From: Spirochaetia bacterium
GTDB taxonomy: Bacteria; Spirochaetota; Spirochaetia; SZUA-6; Bin103
NCBI GenBank assembly: GCA_965208575.1
Contig: CBDBOV010000001.1
Coordinates: 472,783 to 536,782 of the forward strand
DNA length: 64,000 nucleotides
Direction of reading: 5' to 3'
The position numbers and the translations under genes are program-made. Shown here in pieces: positions 19,642 to 49,663 of the stretch. Under the pieces are notes generated by a model. The model did not search any database, was not told the origin of the DNA, and saw nothing but the letters and a program-made list of their open reading frames with translations. Position 1 is the first letter of the stretch. Each line of letters starts with the position of its first letter.

Positions 19642-19796
19642 GCAGCCCGTGCCGAAACACCGGCTGCACGGGACGCGGCGATGCATGCGGCTGGCGGCGA
19701 TGCTCCTCGCTCACACCCCAACCGACATGTTGCGTCGCGCCTTGCCAGCGTGGCACCACCGCCCATCGTGCGATGCCGAGTTCCACCACGAGCGGC
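19642..19796. repeat. MITE/REP-like element, uninterrupted copy (~155 bp)
   Basis: Colinear with 34650-34748 plus 36747-36807. Imperfect terminal inverted repeats gcagcccgtg/cacgagcggc. Confidence 0.8.
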
Positions 19797-32779: not shown

Positions 32780-33736
32780 ATGGCTGACGTGCGGATGGCA
32801 GCGGCGCGTACGGTGGGGCGGCGCCGCGGACGGCTGCTGGCGCGGATTCGCGGCAACTGGCAGCTCTACCTGATCCTGTCGGTCCCCATCGCCTTCTTCG
32901 TGATCTTTCACTACCTGCCGATGTACGGCGCGCAGATCGCGTTCCGGGAGTTCATCGCCATCAAGGGCATCTGGGGCAGCCCGTGGGTGGGCGTCGACCA
33001 GTTCGTCAAGTTCTTCCGCTCCTACCAGTTCACGCGCGTGGTGGGCAACACCGCCGGCATCGCCGTCTACACCCTGGTGGCGGGGTTTCCCATCCCGATC
33101 ATCCTGGCGCTGCTGATCAACAACTCGGAGGCGCCGCGCTTCAAGAAGACCGCGCAGATGGTCACCTATGCGCCGCACTTCATCTCCACGGTGGTGATGG
33201 TGGGGTTGCTGCTGCAGTTCCTGTCGCCCCGCTACGGCGCCGTGAACGCGCTGATCAAGGCGCTCGGCTTCGAGCCGGTGCACTTCATGGGCGAGGCCGG
33301 CATGTTCTGGAGCGTGTACGTGTGGTCGGGCATCTGGCAGGAGGCGGGCTGGGGCACGATCATCTTCCTGGCGGCGCTGGCGAGCATCGATCCCACCCTG
33401 CACGAGGCGGCGATCGTGGACGGGGCGAGCAAGCTGCAGCGCACCTGGCGCATCGACGTGCCCGGCATCCTGCCCACCGCGGTGGTGCTGCTGATCCTGC
33501 GCATGGGCCAGCTCATGAACGTCGGCTTCGAGAAGGCGCTCCTGATGCAGAACCCGCTCAACCTGCAGGCCTCCGAGATCATCCAGACGTTCGTGTACAA
33601 GATCGGCATCGAGTCCAACCTGCCGGCGTACTCCTACTCGTCGGCGATCGGCCTGTTCAACTCGGTGATCAACTTCGCGCTCATCATCACCGTCAACGAG
33701 ATCGCCAAGCGGGTGAGCAACACCAGCCTGTGGTGA
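32780..33736 (+). CDS. Carbohydrate ABC permease (LplB-like)
   Basis: YAPHFISTVV, HEAAIVDGASK, IGLFNSVIN. Confidence 0.93.
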   Translation: MADVRMAAARTVGRRRGRLLARIRGNWQLYLILSVPIAFFVIFHYLPMYGAQIAFREFIAIKGIWGSPWVGVDQFVKFFRSYQFTRVVGNTAGIAVYTLVAGFPIPIILALLINNSEAPRFKKTAQMVTYAPHFISTVVMVGLLLQFLSPRYGAVNALIKALGFEPVHFMGEAGMFWSVYVWSGIWQEAGWGTIIFLAALASIDPTLHEAAIVDGASKLQRTWRIDVPGILPTAVVLLILRMGQLMNVGFEKALLMQNPLNLQASEIIQTFVYKIGIESNLPAYSYSSAIGLFNSVINFALIITVNEIAKRVSNTSLW

Positions 33737-33761
33737 GGCGGGCGAGGGGGGTCATGAGGCG

Positions 33762-34649
33762 ATGGCCATAGAACGCAGCCAAGGCGACCGCGTCTACCAG
33801 TGGTGCAACAACGCCCTGCTGGCGCTCGCCATCGCGGTGGTGCTGTATCCGCTGATCTACGTGCTGTCGGCGTCGTTCAGCTCCACGCGGGCGGTGCTCG
33901 GCGGGCGGGTGTGGCTGTGGCCGGTGGAGCCGACCCTGCTCGGCTACCAGACCATCTTCGACTACGCGCTGATCTGGCGCGGCTACGCCAACACCGTGTT
34001 CTATACCTTCTTCGGCACCATCATCAACGTGGTGCTGACCATCATGGCCGCCTACCCGCTGTCACGGCGCGACCTGGTGGGCCGCAGCCTGTTCATGTTC
34101 CTGATCACCTTCACGATGATTTTTTCCGGCGGGCTGATTCCGACCTACCTGCTGGTGCGCGAGTTGGGGATGATCAACACGCGCTGGGTGATGATGATCC
34201 CCAACGCGATCGCCGCCTGGAACGTGATCATTACCCGCACCTACTACCAGACCACCATCTCCGACGAGCTGCTGGAGGCGGCGCAACTCGACGGCTGCAG
34301 CGACGCCCGCTTCATCTGGCAGATCGTGGTGCCGCTGTCGGGCGCCATCACCGCCGTCAACACCCTGTTCTACGCCGTCGGCCACTGGAACGCGTTCTTC
34401 AATGCCTTCATCTACCTCAACGACGACCGCCTGTTCCCGCTGCAGATCGTGCTGCGCGAGATCCTGATCGCCAACGACATCGACCTGGAGCTGACCGGCG
34501 ACGTGATCGACGACGAAGCGCGCCAGGGCCTGCGCGAGCTGCTCAAGTTCTCGCTCATCGTGGTGGCCAGCGTCCCGGTGCTGATGATGTACCCCTTCGT
34601 CCAGAAGTACTTCGTCCGCGGCGTCATGATCGGCTCCATCAAGGGCTAA
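33762..34649 (+). CDS. Carbohydrate ABC permease (LplC-like)
   Basis: GGLIPTYL, EAAQLDG, YPFVQKYFVRGVMIGSIKG. Confidence 0.93.
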   Translation: MAIERSQGDRVYQWCNNALLALAIAVVLYPLIYVLSASFSSTRAVLGGRVWLWPVEPTLLGYQTIFDYALIWRGYANTVFYTFFGTIINVVLTIMAAYPLSRRDLVGRSLFMFLITFTMIFSGGLIPTYLLVRELGMINTRWVMMIPNAIAAWNVIITRTYYQTTISDELLEAAQLDGCSDARFIWQIVVPLSGAITAVNTLFYAVGHWNAFFNAFIYLNDDRLFPLQIVLREILIANDIDLELTGDVIDDEARQGLRELLKFSLIVVASVPVLMMYPFVQKYFVRGVMIGSIKG

Positions 34650-34748
34650 GCAGCCCGTGGCGAAACTCCGGCTGCATTCGAGCGGCGATCCATCCCGTCT
34701 GGCTGCGTTGCTCCTCGCTCCCATATACACGGATATGCTCGTTCGTCG

Positions 34749-36746
34749 TCGCGCCAGGCCAAGCCTGGGGAAGGAGGAAGATGAAATAGACATCAGAAAC
34801 CTTTCTTAGCCACCCCGTGGGTAGCCAATCCCATCCGGTAAAGCATAGCAAGCAGCCGGAAGCGAGTCTTGCGTCGGCAGGGGCGACCCTGAGGGCGAAG
34901 CGTAGACAGCGACCGCAGAAGCCGTGTGATTGAGCCTCGAAAGGAGAATGCTCGCTGGGGCCTTCGTAGTCGACAATGCGGGGGCAGCACCGTACGTGCC
35001 GAAATGGCGAGGCACGGCGGCCCGGTCGGGGTCGGAGAGCAGGGCAGATGCGGAGCGGGTGGCCCAGGAACCTGGGAGAGCTCGATGTCTCCATGACGGG
35101 AGAGCCGGAGGGACGCCGGCACACCAACGTCCGGGCCTGCACGGGAGAGCGCCCGTGAACGTGCAGGAGCGAAGCAGCGGGTGCGGTCGTGGTACCGCCA
35201 AGCGAAGGCAACGAAGCGCGGCGGGAAGGGCAACGAGCAGTCTTAGCGCCCCCATAGTACCGAGGAAGCGGGGGAACGGTCGCCGCACCGGACCCGGCGG
35301 AGGGAAGGAGGGCGTCAAGTCGTAGAACTGGTGCGGGGAAACATGGAGGATGCGATGGAATCCGGGAACGTGTTAACGAAACAGCAGCAGATAGCAGAGA
35401 ACGCGAGAATCCACGCCGGCGTGGCATTCACGTCGCTGGCGTATCACATGGATCTGGAGTGGCTGTACGAAGCCTACCGGCGTACCCGGAAGGATGGTGC
35501 AGTTGGAGTTGACGAACAGACTGCCGAGCAGTACGGGGAGAACCTGGAGCAGAATTTGAAATCACTGCTGGAGCGGGCGAAGGCGGGAACGTACCGCGCG
35601 CCGCCGGTAAGGCGGGCGCACATTCCGAAAGGGAAGGGCGGAGAAACCCGCCCGATCGGGATACCGACCTTCGAGGACAAGGTACTTCAGCGGGCGGTAC
35701 AGATGCTGCTTGAGCCCCTGTACGAGCGAGACTTTCTAAGCTGTGCACACGGCTTTCGCCCGAAGCGATCGCCGCACACGGCGCTGCAAGCACTCTGGGA
35801 CCAGATGATGGGTCAAGGGGGCGGTTGGGTGATAGACCTGGACATACGAAAGTATTTCGACACGCTGTCACACGCTACCATGCGCACGATTCTGGCACAG
35901 CGGATGCGAGATGGAGTGATCACACGATTGATCGGAAAATGGCTAAAGGCAGGGGTCATGGAAGATGGCTCAGTGACCTACCCGGAGCAGGGGACACCGC
36001 AAGGTGGCGTACTATCGCCGTTGCTCAGCAATGTTTATCTGCACGAGGTACTCGACCGATGGTTCTATGAGGTGGTCCGACCGCGCCTGCGGGGGCGGGC
36101 GTTCCTGGTGCGTTTTGCGGACGATGCGGTACTGACGTTCAGCGACCGGCGCGATGCCGAGAACGTGCTGCGCGTGTTACCAAAGCGCTTCGCGAAGTAC
36201 GGGTTGACCGTGCACGAGGAAAAGACACGGATGCTTCAGTTTCGACCGCCGGGAGGGAACGCGACAGCCCACCACGGGGCGAGTTTTCCATTCTTGGGAT
36301 TCACGCACTATTGGGGGCGCTCGCGCAACGGGAAGTGGATCGTGAAGCGGAAAACCGCCTCCGACCGGCTGACCCGTGCGTTACGAGCACTCGCCGTGTG
36401 GTGTAAGCGCCATCGGCACGAGCCTCTGCGGGCGCAGCAAGCGGCCCTCCGGCGCAAGCTGCTGGGCCACTATGGGTATTACGGCATTACCGGCAATGGG
36501 CGCTCGTTGGGGTACTTCCACGACGCCGCCAAGCGCCTCTGGTTGAAGTGGCTGAACCGGCGCGGTGGACGACGCCTCACGTGGGCCTGCTTTGCGCGGT
36601 TGCTGGCCCGATATCCGCTGCCGGCCGTTCGTGTCGTCCAGTCCATCTATGCAGCGAACTCTACGACCTGAGGAACCGTGTGCGTCAATCGCGCTCGCAC
36701 GGGACTGTGGGGGCCTGGGGCGGGCAACCGCCCTGGGCTACCCGGA
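34749..36746 (+). mobile_element. Group II intron (RT/maturase without endonuclease; resembles bacterial class E)
   Basis: Domain I motifs (cgaagcgtagacag, aggaacctgggag), domain III catagtaccgaggaag, domain V gaaccgtgtgcg...cgcacgg at ~36673, domain VI hairpin with bulged A. Ends deduced from the empty MITE copy. Confidence 0.9.
35331..36671 (+). CDS. ltrA: Group II intron reverse transcriptase/maturase
   Basis: RPIGIPTFEDK, GFRP, GTPQGG, RFADD, FLGF, maturase X domain, no HNH. Start may be ATG 35343 or 35355. Confidence 0.95.
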   Translation: MRGNMEDAMESGNVLTKQQQIAENARIHAGVAFTSLAYHMDLEWLYEAYRRTRKDGAVGVDEQTAEQYGENLEQNLKSLLERAKAGTYRAPPVRRAHIPKGKGGETRPIGIPTFEDKVLQRAVQMLLEPLYERDFLSCAHGFRPKRSPHTALQALWDQMMGQGGGWVIDLDIRKYFDTLSHATMRTILAQRMRDGVITRLIGKWLKAGVMEDGSVTYPEQGTPQGGVLSPLLSNVYLHEVLDRWFYEVVRPRLRGRAFLVRFADDAVLTFSDRRDAENVLRVLPKRFAKYGLTVHEEKTRMLQFRPPGGNATAHHGASFPFLGFTHYWGRSRNGKWIVKRKTASDRLTRALRALAVWCKRHRHEPLRAQQAALRRKLLGHYGYYGITGNGRSLGYFHDAAKRLWLKWLNRRGGRRLTWACFARLLARYPLPAVRVVQSIYAANSTT

Positions 36747-36781
36747 CGCCTTGCCAGCCGGGCGCCTCGCCGCTCTCGGTG

Positions 36782-37960
36782 CTACGCCGGGTTCCACCAC
36801 GGGCTGCTAGCCGGCAAGCTGGCGTCTGGCGCTGGCGGGGCGTGGTCGACGACGTGGGTCATCAGCGACGGGATGCCGGCCATCCAGACGACCGGCGGCA
36901 GTTGCCCCGGCGGGGTCCATATGTAACCCAGCCGGTGCAACTCCTCGCGCGCGGCCAGCCGGGCAGCGGCGTCGGCGCCGGTCGTGGCCAGGGCCGCGTC
37001 GATGGCGTGGTCGGAGACGGCGGCGCCGGATTGGAACAGCGGCGCCGTCGCCGCGGCCGCGGGCAGCAGGCCGCGCCCCTCCAGTTCGCGATAGCGATCC
37101 TGGTAGTAGTCGGTAACCCTGGCGGCCACGTCGGCGCGCGCCGCGTCCGCGTGCGCGGTGGTGAGCCGCGTCGCGCCGGTGGCCAGGCGCTGCTGCCAAA
37201 GGGCGCGCCCCCAAACCTGGATGAAGTACGGGTAGCACTGGCTGTCCTCGACTACCGCATCGACGGCATCGGCGTCGATCGCCACGCCGTGGGCGCGCAG
37301 CGGCTCGACCAGGGCGGCGCGCGCGGCCGCGGCGCTCAGCAGACCGATGCCCAGGCGGCCTTCGTCCAGCCGACTCCAGAAGGACGCGTTCATGGCGCCG
37401 AGATGCGCCGCCAAACCCGGCGTGCCGGCGAGCACCAGCAGGAACGGGGCGTCGCCGCGCACCTGTTGACTGGCGTTGAGCAGCGTTCTGCCCACCCCGA
37501 GATCGAGCGTGTGCGCCTCGTCGAGCAGCACGGCAAGCGGTTTCTTGCGGCACCGAGCGGTCAATTCCGCCCGCAGGTTCCGCACGCCCCCGGACGGCGG
37601 CGCCCATTCGACCGAACCCACGGCCGCCACACCCACCTTCCGGGGCAGCAGTTTCATCACCGCGGACGACGGCGACAGGACGTCGATCAGCGCTTCCCGC
37701 GTGGAGATGTCGTCGGGTGTCGCGGCCACCACGTCCACTTCCGTAGCGTGGTCGCGGCAGGTGCGCTCGAACCAGCCTAGCAGCACGGTCTTGCCGTTGC
37801 CGCGCGGCCCGGTCAGGACGACGTCGTGCGGCGGGGACGTGCCGCCGAGCAGGTCTGTCAGACACCGGGTCAGTACTGCCTGCTCCCGTTCGCGCCCGGT
37901 AAGCGCCGGCGGCATGGCACCCGTACCGGGAGTGAATACGCGCTGTTGCGCCTCCGTCAT
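36782..37960 (-). CDS. AAA+ ATPase (AAA_16-like)
   Basis: FTPGTG..PPALTGRE, Walker A GPRGNGKT, Walker B LLDEAH, YPYFIQ. Confidence 0.85.
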   Translation of the reverse strand: MTEAQQRVFTPGTGAMPPALTGREREQAVLTRCLTDLLGGTSPPHDVVLTGPRGNGKTVLLGWFERTCRDHATEVDVVAATPDDISTREALIDVLSPSSAVMKLLPRKVGVAAVGSVEWAPPSGGVRNLRAELTARCRKKPLAVLLDEAHTLDLGVGRTLLNASQQVRGDAPFLLVLAGTPGLAAHLGAMNASFWSRLDEGRLGIGLLSAAAARAALVEPLRAHGVAIDADAVDAVVEDSQCYPYFIQVWGRALWQQRLATGATRLTTAHADAARADVAARVTDYYQDRYRELEGRGLLPAAAATAPLFQSGAAVSDHAIDAALATTGADAAARLAAREELHRLGYIWTPPGQLPPVVWMAGIPSLMTHVVDHAPPAPDASLPASSPWWNPA

Positions 37961-40035: not shown

Positions 40036-40986
40036 ATGAGGCCGGCTGCCGAATCACTGGCCGCGCCGCGGGTGCGGCATTCGCTGTGGCGCGACGCGCG
40101 CGTCAACTGGCAGCTCCACCTGCTGCTGCTGCTGCCGCTCATCTACCTGCTCATCTTCAAGTACGTGCCGATGTGGGGGGCGCAGATCGCGTTCCGCGAC
40201 TTCTTCGCCGTCAAGGGCATCGTCGGCAGCCCCTGGGTCGGCATGGCCAACTTCGAGCGCTTCTTCGAGTCGCCGCAGTTCTGGACCGTGCTCAGGAACA
40301 CGCTCGGGCTGTCGGCATACCAGATCGCGGCGATGTTTCCGATCCCGATCATCCTGGCGCTGGCGCTCAACAACGTCGAGCACCGCCGCTTCAAGAAGAC
40401 GGTGCAGCTCACCACGTACGCTCCCCACTTCATCTCCACGGTGGTGATGGCGGGCATGATCATGCGCTTCCTGTCGCTGCACACCGGGGTGGTCAACAGC
40501 GCGCTGGAGGGGCTCGGACTGGCGCGGATCTCGTTCATGAGCAGCCCGGAGCTGTTCCAGTCGATCTACGTGATCTCCGGAATCTGGCAGAACGCCGGCT
40601 GGGGCACCATCATCTACCTGGCGGCGCTCGCCGGCGTCGATCCGCAACTGCATGAGGCGGCGATCGTGGACGGCGCCTCCAAGCTGCAGCGCACGCGCCA
40701 CATCGACGTGCCGGGCATCCTGCCGGTGGCGATCATCCTGCTGATCCTGGAGACCGGGCGCATCATGCAGGTGGGGTTCGAGAAGGCGTTGCTGCTGCAG
40801 ACGCCCCTGAACCTGACCACCTCCGAGGTGATCCAGACCTACGTGTACAAGATCGGGCTCGCCTCGCCGGTGCCCGACTACTCGTTCGCCACCGCCATCG
40901 GGCTGTTCAACTCGGTGGTCAACCTCGCGCTGATCCTGGTGGTGAATTGGATCGCGCGCCGCTTGAGCGATACCAGCCTGTGGTAG
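40036..40986 (+). CDS. Carbohydrate ABC permease (LplB-like), paralog of 32780-33736
   Basis: YAPHFISTVV and HEAAIVDGASK. Confidence 0.93.
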   Translation: MRPAAESLAAPRVRHSLWRDARVNWQLHLLLLLPLIYLLIFKYVPMWGAQIAFRDFFAVKGIVGSPWVGMANFERFFESPQFWTVLRNTLGLSAYQIAAMFPIPIILALALNNVEHRRFKKTVQLTTYAPHFISTVVMAGMIMRFLSLHTGVVNSALEGLGLARISFMSSPELFQSIYVISGIWQNAGWGTIIYLAALAGVDPQLHEAAIVDGASKLQRTRHIDVPGILPVAIILLILETGRIMQVGFEKALLLQTPLNLTTSEVIQTYVYKIGLASPVPDYSFATAIGLFNSVVNLALILVVNWIARRLSDTSLW

Positions 40987-41909
40987 CCCGAGAGCCCACC
41001 CTCGACCTGCATCGCGTGGTGCGCCGGCGCATCGGCAAGAGCCGCGTGGACGTGATCTTCGACGGCTTCAACTACACGTTCCTGGCGCTGGTGCTGATCG
41101 GTGTCGCCTACCCGCTGATCTACATCGTCAGTGCATCGCTCAGCGCCCCGCAGGCGACCATCGGCGGCCAGGTGTGGCTGCTGCCGGTGAAGCCCACGCT
41201 GCGCGCCTACGAGGCGATCTTCGAGTACCGCAAGGTGTGGATCGGCTACGGCAACAGCCTGTTCTATGCCAGCGTCGGCACCGCCATCAACATCGTGCTC
41301 ACCGTGATGGCCGCCTACCCGCTGTCGCGCCCCGACTTCAAGGCGCGCCACCTCTACATGGCGCTGCTGGTGTTCACCATGCTGTTCAACGGCGGCATCA
41401 TCCCCAACTACCTGCTGGTGCGCGACCTGGGCATCCTCAACACGCGCTGGGCGATGCTGCTGCCGCAGGGCCTGTTGGTATGGAACGTGATCATTACCCG
41501 CACCTACTACCAGACCACGATCAGCTCCGGCCTGCTGGAGGCGGCGCGCATCGACGGCTGCAGCGACCTGCGCTTCGTGTGGTCGATCGTGGTGCCGCTG
41601 TCGGGCGCCATCACCGCGGTCAACGCGCTGTTCTACGCGGTGTTCCACTGGAACACCTTCTTCGACGCGTTCATCTACCTGAACAAGGAGGAGCTGTACC
41701 CGCTGCAGATCTTCCTGCGCGCCATCCTGATCATCAACACCGTGGAGGCGGAACTGATGGATCCCAAGGAGTTGGAGGCGCTGGAGGGGATGCGCGACCT
41801 GCTGCAGTTCGCCCTGATCATCGTCGCCAGCCTGCCGGTGCTGATCGCCTACCCGTTCGTGCAGAAGTACTTCGTGCGCGGCGTGATGATCGGCTCGTTG
41901 AAGGAATAG
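40980..41909 (+). CDS. Carbohydrate ABC permease (LplC-like), paralog of 33762-34649
   Basis: GGIIPNYL, EAARIDG, YPFVQKYFVRGVMIGS. Confidence 0.93.
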   Translation: MVAREPTLDLHRVVRRRIGKSRVDVIFDGFNYTFLALVLIGVAYPLIYIVSASLSAPQATIGGQVWLLPVKPTLRAYEAIFEYRKVWIGYGNSLFYASVGTAINIVLTVMAAYPLSRPDFKARHLYMALLVFTMLFNGGIIPNYLLVRDLGILNTRWAMLLPQGLLVWNVIITRTYYQTTISSGLLEAARIDGCSDLRFVWSIVVPLSGAITAVNALFYAVFHWNTFFDAFIYLNKEELYPLQIFLRAILIINTVEAELMDPKELEALEGMRDLLQFALIIVASLPVLIAYPFVQKYFVRGVMIGSLKE

Positions 41910-49591: not shown

Positions 49592-49663
49592 AGCGCCCGA
49601 GCGGACTCGAACCGCCATCACGAGCTTGGAAGGCTCGGGTAATGACCCTTATACGACAGGCGC
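49592..49663 (-). tRNA. tRNA-Gly(TCC)
   Basis: Acceptor stem GCGCCTG/CGGGCGC, anticodon arm CGAGC-CTTCCAA-GCTCG, T-loop GGTTCGAGTCC. CCA not encoded. Confidence 0.95.

Follow-up and report, generated by a model that had tools for sequence, protein, structure and literature searches.

A group II intron with UCGCG...GGA ends and an AAC triad in a Spirochaetia genome, and matched terminal and active-site changes among its relatives

The 64,000-nucleotide stretch of a Spirochaetia bacterium genome analysed here (the window; assembly GCA_965208575.1, contig CBDBOV010000001.1, positions 472,783 to 536,782) carries a complete group II intron whose ends are 5'-UCGCG...GGA-3', with an AAC triad in domain V and an altered joining segment between domains II and III (J2/3). 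The sequence evidence makes it highly probable that this is a functional and recently mobile intron with its own reverse transcriptase (RT)/maturase, from a lineage that swapped conserved terminal and active-site nucleotides together and kept the contacts between them. It is also probable, with more reserve, that it represents an active and widespread lineage in which the triad changed from AGC to AAC along with G to U or C in J2/3, nucleotide 1 and the penultimate nucleotide from G/A to U/G, and the gamma-gamma' pair from G-C to U-A, and in which the triad change arose several times independently. Coordinates are positions in the whole window, and the intron is read on the + strand. The features of the intron are listed below.

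34749-36746, + strand: complete group II intron, 1998 nucleotides (nt); five copies about 100% identical over positions 1-1998, flanks divergent, empty sites matching
34743-34748, + strand: intron-binding site 1 (IBS1), the last six exon nucleotides, UCGUCG here and UUGUCG at three other copies
34749-34753, + strand: 5' terminal pentanucleotide UCGCG, in place of GUGYG; aligns with GUGCG or UUGCG of relatives, before the same hairpin
34754-34768, + strand: first hairpin of domain I, CCAGGC-CAA-GCCUGG; conserved, following the pentanucleotide in nearly all relatives
34825-35041, + strand: domain I core, the RF02005 match (Rfam group-II-D1D4-6)
34971-34976, + strand: exon-binding site 1 (EBS1), CGACAA, in a hairpin loop of the RF02005 domain I alignment
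35243-35245, + strand: J2/3, with U35243 as gamma, U35244 as the predicted partner of the middle triad nucleotide and A35245 conserved; G-G-A in canonical relatives
35331-36671, + strand: intron-encoded RT/maturase in domain IV, 446 amino acids, without an endonuclease domain and with FADD replacing YADD
36673-36705, + strand: domain V, aligned with that of relatives, with the triad A36674-A36675-C36676 and the two-nucleotide bulge U36695-C36696
36709-36743, + strand: domain VI, with a GCAA tetraloop and a bulged branch-point candidate, A36740, six nucleotides before the end
36744-36746, + strand: 3' terminal GGA, with G36745 penultimate and A36746 as gamma-prime; aligns with GAC or GGC of relatives; the copies diverge after A36746

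The identification as a group II intron, already proposed in a first-pass annotation made from the sequence alone, is borne out by the RF02005 match (153.5 bits, E 4e-44, gathering score 49, full model 1-225) and by an RT/maturase that passes TIGR04416. RF02005 gave no match in any of 14 control genomes, and its score, together with the fold of domains V and VI described below, indicates an intron signal beyond chance. The RT/maturase gene is the sole long open reading frame (ORF) on the + strand of the element and matches Pfam RVT_1 (E 8e-32) and the NCBIfam equivalog TIGR04416 (328.8 bits, cut-off 300).

Both ends of the element can be read from its copies. The genome carries five, about 100% identical across all 1998 nt and different in sequence immediately outside, in four different sequence contexts. 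Their 5' flanks end in TCGTCG twice (one repeat family) and in TTGTCG three times (other contexts), and their 3' flanks start with cgcc, cgcc, ctcg, gcca and cgcc. The repeat family that hosts the window copy is an interspersed repeat resembling a miniature inverted-repeat transposable element (MITE), about 160-170 nt long with 11-nt inverted termini and at least 25 genomic copies (consensus of 12 aligned copies). Two copies of this repeat carry the intron, and the three other intron copies sit elsewhere, all after UUGUCG. The parts of the repeat in the window are as follows.

34650-34748, + strand: left part of the MITE-like repeat, the 5' exon, with the terminal inverted repeat GCAGCCCGTGG at 34650-34660
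36747-36807, + strand: right part of the MITE-like repeat, the 3' exon, with the terminal inverted repeat CCACGGGCTGC at 36797-36807
19642-19796, + strand: diverged empty copy of the repeat, with the unoccupied site between 19737 and 19738; 75% identical over 61 nt to the 3' flank in a BLAST search with the flanks

At 19733-19749 the empty copy reads cgtcgcgccttgccagc, the sequence that the first-pass annotation had expected excision to restore. Other unoccupied copies in the same genome, for example at C6:952468 and C5:821555, read ...GCTCGTTCGTCG|CGCCTTGCCAGCC and equal the joined flanks of the window copy. Taken together, the flanks of the five copies and the empty sites show that insertion was site-specific and without target-site duplication, which fits the expectation for reverse splicing. 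The intron ends are exactly 5'-UCGCG...GGA-3', with no residual ambiguity: a CGCC redundancy at the junctions had been thought to blur them by a few nucleotides, and alignment of other intron copies, the check proposed at that stage, fixes both ends on the five copies together with the empty repeat copies.

Three hallmarks of group II introns are altered. The 5' end is UCGCG instead of GUGYG, with positions 3-5 (GCG) retained and positions 1-2 changed; the 3' end is GA instead of AY, inside ...A-CCC-GGA; and the triad at 36674-36676 is AAC instead of AGC or CGC. The absence of GUGYG at the 5' junction, a J2/3 reading TTA and the AAC triad had all been noted at first pass, and each holds, with TCGCG at 34749, GGA ending at 36746, TTA at 35243-35245 and the triad as given.

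These positions were compared across relatives comprising 80 loci from species genomes (RT 53-64% identical, many phyla), 29 loci from the same order, where 34 of the 92 genomes searched had a match, and 80 metagenomic loci. A J2/3 profile match was present in 144 of the 189 gathered loci, and with the window copy 145 loci were tabulated. Loci with an unclear 3' end were dropped (L032, L082, L102, L134); L055, L157 and L161 were taken with a 7-nt tail after manual reading, and L044, L047 and L106 were corrected by hand. Twenty-three 5' ends were read by eye, and the other failed parses were regained by profile search or left unknown.

Column by column, canonical relatives have GUGCG, the CCAGGC-loop-GCCUGG hairpin, J2/3 GUC-GG-AGC, a domain V that starts with GAGCC and has an AC bulge, and the end A-CCC-GAC. 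The window intron has in the same columns UCGCG, GUC-UU-AGC, GAACC with a UC bulge, and A-CCC-GGA. Across the 145 loci the 5' ends were GUGCG (58), UUGCG (26), UCGCG (18), CUGCG (5), others (6) and unknown (32). Nucleotide 1 and the penultimate nucleotide, where both were known (n=86), occurred as G/A in 48 loci, U/G in 35 and C/G in 3, with no other combinations. The gamma nucleotide (the first letter of J2/3) and the last nucleotide (n=109) were G-C in 94 loci, U-A in 12, A-U in 2 (L086, L161) and C-G in 1 (L042), which makes gamma-gamma' Watson-Crick in 109 of 109 loci with four pair types, U35243-A36746 being the pair of the window intron. This agrees with the earlier proposal that a gamma U would pair with a terminal A. 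The wider proposal, of a co-evolved variant core and not decay, gains support from the exact ends, the column-wise alignment and the gamma/last covariation.

Two further associations go beyond that proposal: judged from the aligned letters, U1 goes with a penultimate G, and AAC goes with U or C as the second letter of J2/3. In model introns, the triad G tolerates mutation very poorly. Among the 126 loci in which both could be read, triad and second J2/3 letter were AGC/G in 97, AAC/U in 25, AAC/C in 3 and AAC/G in 1. AAC was present in 29 of the 126, and 28 of these 29 had U or C second in J2/3. Opposite the middle triad position, an A was found in 93 of the 97 AGC loci, and G (21) or A (8) in the AAC loci. 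L046 is the sole AAC locus with G second in J2/3. The same assembly contains its sister copy L074 with AGC, and L046 therefore appears to carry a fresh mutation, probably a recent, uncompensated and inactivating one at a single position.

The window intron falls in a clade characterised by UCGCG, UU, AAC and GGA. Within the same order, UCGCG starts 15 of the 20 loci with a covered 5' end, all with different flanks, and GGA ends 9 of the 11 loci with a covered 3' end. The clade is present in at least 15 other genomes of this order, in other phyla (L008, L027) and in metagenomes (L117, L119-L121), and its letter set is retained across about 30-40% nucleotide divergence. Two members of the UCGCG group, L099 and L100, have G-U in J2/3 and end in AGC, so gamma-gamma' switches inside the group. 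L195 starts with UCGCG and has an otherwise canonical core, from which it follows that C2 can occur apart from AAC and from the U-A pair. Within the clade, the RT genes are under purifying selection, as indicated by differences of 0.12, 0.10 and 0.39 at the three codon positions relative to L088, with similar values for six further loci and no stops; divergence at third positions is three to four times that at second positions. Another genome holds three adjoining head-to-tail copies of an 80%-identical intron relative (G021:C1:1624980-1630958, with copies at 1624980-1626973, 1626974-1628964 and 1628965-1630958), and in L055 an intron 3' end is likewise followed by an intron 5' end.

The sequence upstream of the intron is consistent with its own recognition loop. 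EBS1, CGACAA, forms 6/6 pairs with UUGUCG (L003, L004, L005) and 5/6 with UCGUCG at the other two copies; the first-pass annotation had described this 5/6 pairing with the exon end tcgtcg, and the hairpin loop position agrees. Homologues with other flanks have correspondingly different loops, such as GACCUA with UAGGUC (L088) and CUGUCG with CGAUAG (L090), and the same is seen in L092 and L099. In a loop-restricted scan, 20 of 57 distinct intron/flank pairs reached 6/6, compared with an average of 2.9 and no more than 8 across 500 shuffles of the flanks; the 20 are a lower bound because the scan anchor misplaces the loop in many distant relatives. On this pairing evidence, the 5' junction appears to be the one that the ribozyme would choose. 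Inspection by eye for EBS2/IBS2 and EBS3/IBS3 pairing gave nothing convincing. An initial EBS1 scan over a 75-nt region was dropped for its background: it gave 6/6 pairing in 44 of 64 cases, but shuffled sequences already averaged 16.

Domain V is predicted to fold, at minimum free energy, into a 6-bp helix, the UC bulge, a 4-bp helix and a 5-nt loop, and the stretch of domains V and VI folds with z = -3.34 against 200 shuffles. Non-standard oppositions are A36675-G36703 and A36674-A36704. In the relatives too, the bulged A of domain VI precedes CCC, after which come the three terminal nucleotides. The Rfam model of domains V and VI, RF00029, had no match on the window at E<=10. Run as a control on canonical relatives, it scored 48.8 bits for L037, 39.2 for L014 and 38.0 for L019, and on the AAC relative L088 it found nothing at E<=1. 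This control indicates that the model loses AAC variants, and its failure on the window is therefore not a sign of decay.

A working model can be proposed from the covariation and the known architecture. The 5' splice site would be set by IBS1 (UYGUCG) pairing with EBS1 (CGACAA). U1 would contact the penultimate G36745, and A36746 would pair with gamma U35243, as C does with G in canonical members. In the catalytic triple helix, U35244 would read A36675, which lies opposite G36703; the canonical counterpart is a G that faces A and is read by G. Together with the RT, the excised RNA would then reverse-splice into DNA sites ending in UUGUCG, one of them inside the abundant MITE-like repeat, with no target duplication. 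The contacts invoked (first with penultimate nucleotide, gamma-gamma' and the triple helix) are established in canonical introns, according to excerpts of PMC3669008, PMC4238363 and the review PMC4424553. The triple helix is named in the available text of PMC3669008 as triad, bulge and J2/3, three elements only.

The covariation was also examined on an RT tree (IQ-TREE, quick mode, LG+G4, 132 loci). The minimum numbers of changes were 6+6 for nucleotide 1 and the penultimate nucleotide, 7+6 for triad and J2/3 letter, and 6+6 for gamma and the last nucleotide. Supported branches yielded four, three and three independent contrasts, respectively, and these were concordant; for the triad pair, a mean of 2.8 of 3 was concordant over random pairings and the remainder showed no difference. 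In the control pairings (nucleotide 1 with triad, nucleotide 1 with gamma, and triad with gamma), the two positions mostly changed separately.

Several points weigh against a functional intron with compensated contacts. The sign tests on these contrasts give p values of 0.125-0.25; with just 3-4 contrasts on supported branches they are unable to reach 0.05, and the covariation is strong descriptively but short of formal proof. The raw counts are non-independent, as they draw on relatives and on more than one copy per genome, and the 3' ends of the relatives were placed by domain VI homology and not by flanks. Among 99 aligned 5' halves, mutual information returned no Watson-Crick partner for nucleotide 2 (C), just clade-linked columns. 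The specific contact assumed here between the second letter of J2/3 and the middle nucleotide of the triad is carried over from the solved IIC structure. An A-A mismatch in the first pair of the triad, present in just 3 of 126 loci (the window intron, L089 and L090), might weaken catalysis. Finally, no splicing products were observed in the contigs of public runs.

The intron could be functional and the correlated letters could nevertheless mark the shared descent of a clade and not physical, compensating contacts. The few contrasts and the sign tests leave room for this, as does the high mutual information (0.50-0.72) between nucleotide 1 and domain I columns flanking the EBS1 hairpin (34963, 34964, 34982 and 35048), which read GCCGACG...GGAAGGC in most GUGCG introns and GCCUUCG...GGGGGC in most U1 introns. 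This domain I signal is at least partly phylogenetic, since the independent U1 lineages L052 and L030 keep the canonical form. The three letter pairs differ in this respect: each went through at least six changes with 0-1 discordant loci, cross-pairs did not track one another, and gamma and the last nucleotide realise all four Watson-Crick combinations with no mismatch. Moreover, experimentally established contacts are described for the same positions in excerpts of PMC4238363 and PMC3669008. Descent alone is thus an unlikely source of the matched letters.

A different explanation holds that the copies are decaying and catalytically dead, that the odd letters are damage, and that the element spread with the MITE-like repeat, by recombination or through mobilisation in trans by the protein of another intron. 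The missing RF00029 match, the two adjacent purine-purine oppositions in domain V, the presence of two of the five copies in one repeat family and the roughly nine further RF02005-type elements in the genome could all be cited in its favour. It is quite implausible when set against three copies that lie off the repeat after the very hexamer matched by EBS1, an intact RT under purifying selection, a letter set conserved over the divergence given above in at least 15 other genomes with different flanks, and changes that are matched in pairs and not random. As for RNA splice sites that differ from the DNA boundaries, such as a cryptic GUGGG present at 34817-34821 or a 3' site a few nucleotides away, shifted sites are known in a few introns (excerpts of PMC4424553), but the idea is scarcely credible here, where UCGCG occupies the columns of GUGCG in relatives, the hexamer directly before 34749 pairs with EBS1, and the identical boundaries of five copies define the RNA ends, given that retrohoming inserts precisely excised RNA.

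Contigs of public sequencing runs contain a joint of 34748 to 36747, which skips 1998 nt. It was seen in two RNA libraries (X19, two contigs, side 27; X20, one contig, side 34) and also in X6, a run without an RNA label (two contigs, side 48); such joints have short sides and 90% likeness and involve a multicopy repeat. Because the joint also occurs in a non-RNA run and the repeat is multicopy, it represents empty sites at most and not ligated exons; it was discarded as splicing evidence and counted neither for nor against. Coverage of the intron body in the RNA libraries comes from 90-95% relatives and is uninformative on expression. In several public metagenome runs, the contig depth summed over the MITE-like repeat itself was very high.

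The preferred reading, a functional lineage with co-adapted ends and core, bears on how active-site contacts are studied. The argument that group II introns and the spliceosome have a common active site draws on the AGC triad, the GU...AY ends and the purines of J2/3, and these features are usually probed with engineered mutants. This family supplies natural double and triple mutants that have arisen repeatedly and are still mobile: AAC with U or C in J2/3, U1 with a penultimate G, and four gamma-gamma' pairs. Swaps between close relatives make the base-triple and end-to-end contacts testable. If the reading is true, the family is a natural compensatory-mutation series for the active-site triplex common to group II introns and U6/U2 of the spliceosome, as follows from a triad change that arose several times independently. 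Surveys that rely on RF00029 miss AAC members, on which this model fails, and AAC introns may accordingly be under-counted by RF00029-based annotation. To our knowledge, there is no structure for an AAC core. Neither an AAC triad nor UCGCG...GGA ends are described in the literature searched, which left aside the curated intron database, figures and supplementary tables, so that earlier reports may exist.

Other features were observed in the genome and in the window. One intron copy is split after about intron position 138 by a 570-nt insertion (G000:C5:154972-155541; L198:73-642), which is flanked by the 9-nt direct repeat TCGCCCCTG. The roughly nine additional RF02005 matches in the genome (up to 179.7 bits; for example G000:C4:536323-536542, L197:224-443) are not copies of the window intron. 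Each follows a conserved palindromic stretch ending in ...GCGCGCGTGCGG, so these introns may begin with GUGCG. Downstream of them no J2/3 or domain V pattern match was obtained, and RF00029 gave no match on L197 at E<=0.01. One possibility is a second family of introns, another a set of ORF-poor derivatives inserting beside a hairpin. Furthermore, window positions 32849-34644 and 40099-41904 are 71-82% identical, about 7.26 kb apart, and the first of these stretches covers the gene that ends right before the repeat (ORF 33762-34649); by sequence, they look like a paralogous gene pair or an operon duplication. One transfer RNA gene was also found.

49592-49663, - strand: transfer RNA gene, RF00005 in Rfam, 54.9 bits

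Among known systems, the nearest comparison is with canonical endonuclease-less introns of the RF02005 type, L014, L037 (Sorangium) and L013 (Polyangium) being among them. The RTs encoded by annotated ltrA genes on plasmids of Halomonas, Bradyrhizobium and Rhizobium are 50-57% identical to that of the window intron. The window intron shares with its canonical relatives domain I (RF02005 108-155 bits in L014, L019, L037 and L088), the first hairpin, the RT length, a domain V with a 9-position lower helix, a 2-nt bulge, a 4-bp upper helix and a 5-nt loop, and a domain VI with a bulged A, then CCC and three terminal nucleotides. The two differ in that canonical members have GUGCG, G-G-A, AGC (G opposite A) and GAC, whereas the window intron has UCGCG, U-U-A, AAC (A opposite G) and GGA.

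RmInt1 of Sinorhizobium meliloti (class D / IIB3), as described in excerpts of PMC4238363, likewise has an endonuclease-less RT and homes into another mobile element, and its 3' end, CC, also departs from AY. In the same excerpts, mutation of RmInt1 shows the second step to be sensitive to changes at gamma-gamma' and at the penultimate position. According to that paper, RmInt1 departs from the consensus at its 3' end only, and its 5' end is of the consensus type; the window intron, by contrast, is changed at nucleotides 1 and 2, at both letters of J2/3, in the triad and at its two final nucleotides. A chloroplast-like (CL1) IIB intron in an integron, UHB.I2, ends in 5'-UUGCG..GU-3' and thus shares U1 and a penultimate G, the rule of 35 loci here, though it belongs to a different class (PMC7923331). 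The available text of that paper reports no triad or J2/3 change in UHB.I2, and its authors do not treat the ends there as covariation.

For the Oceanobacillus iheyensis IIC intron, the accessible part of PMC3669008 gives the triad C358-G359-C360, the bulge A376-C377, J2/3 A287-G288-C289 and the gamma pair A287-U412. The positions that vary in the present family map onto the gamma nucleotide of that intron, the next J2/3 purine, the middle triad nucleotide and the bulge. Where O. iheyensis has CGC with A-G-C in J2/3 (PMC3669008), the window intron has AAC with U-U-A.

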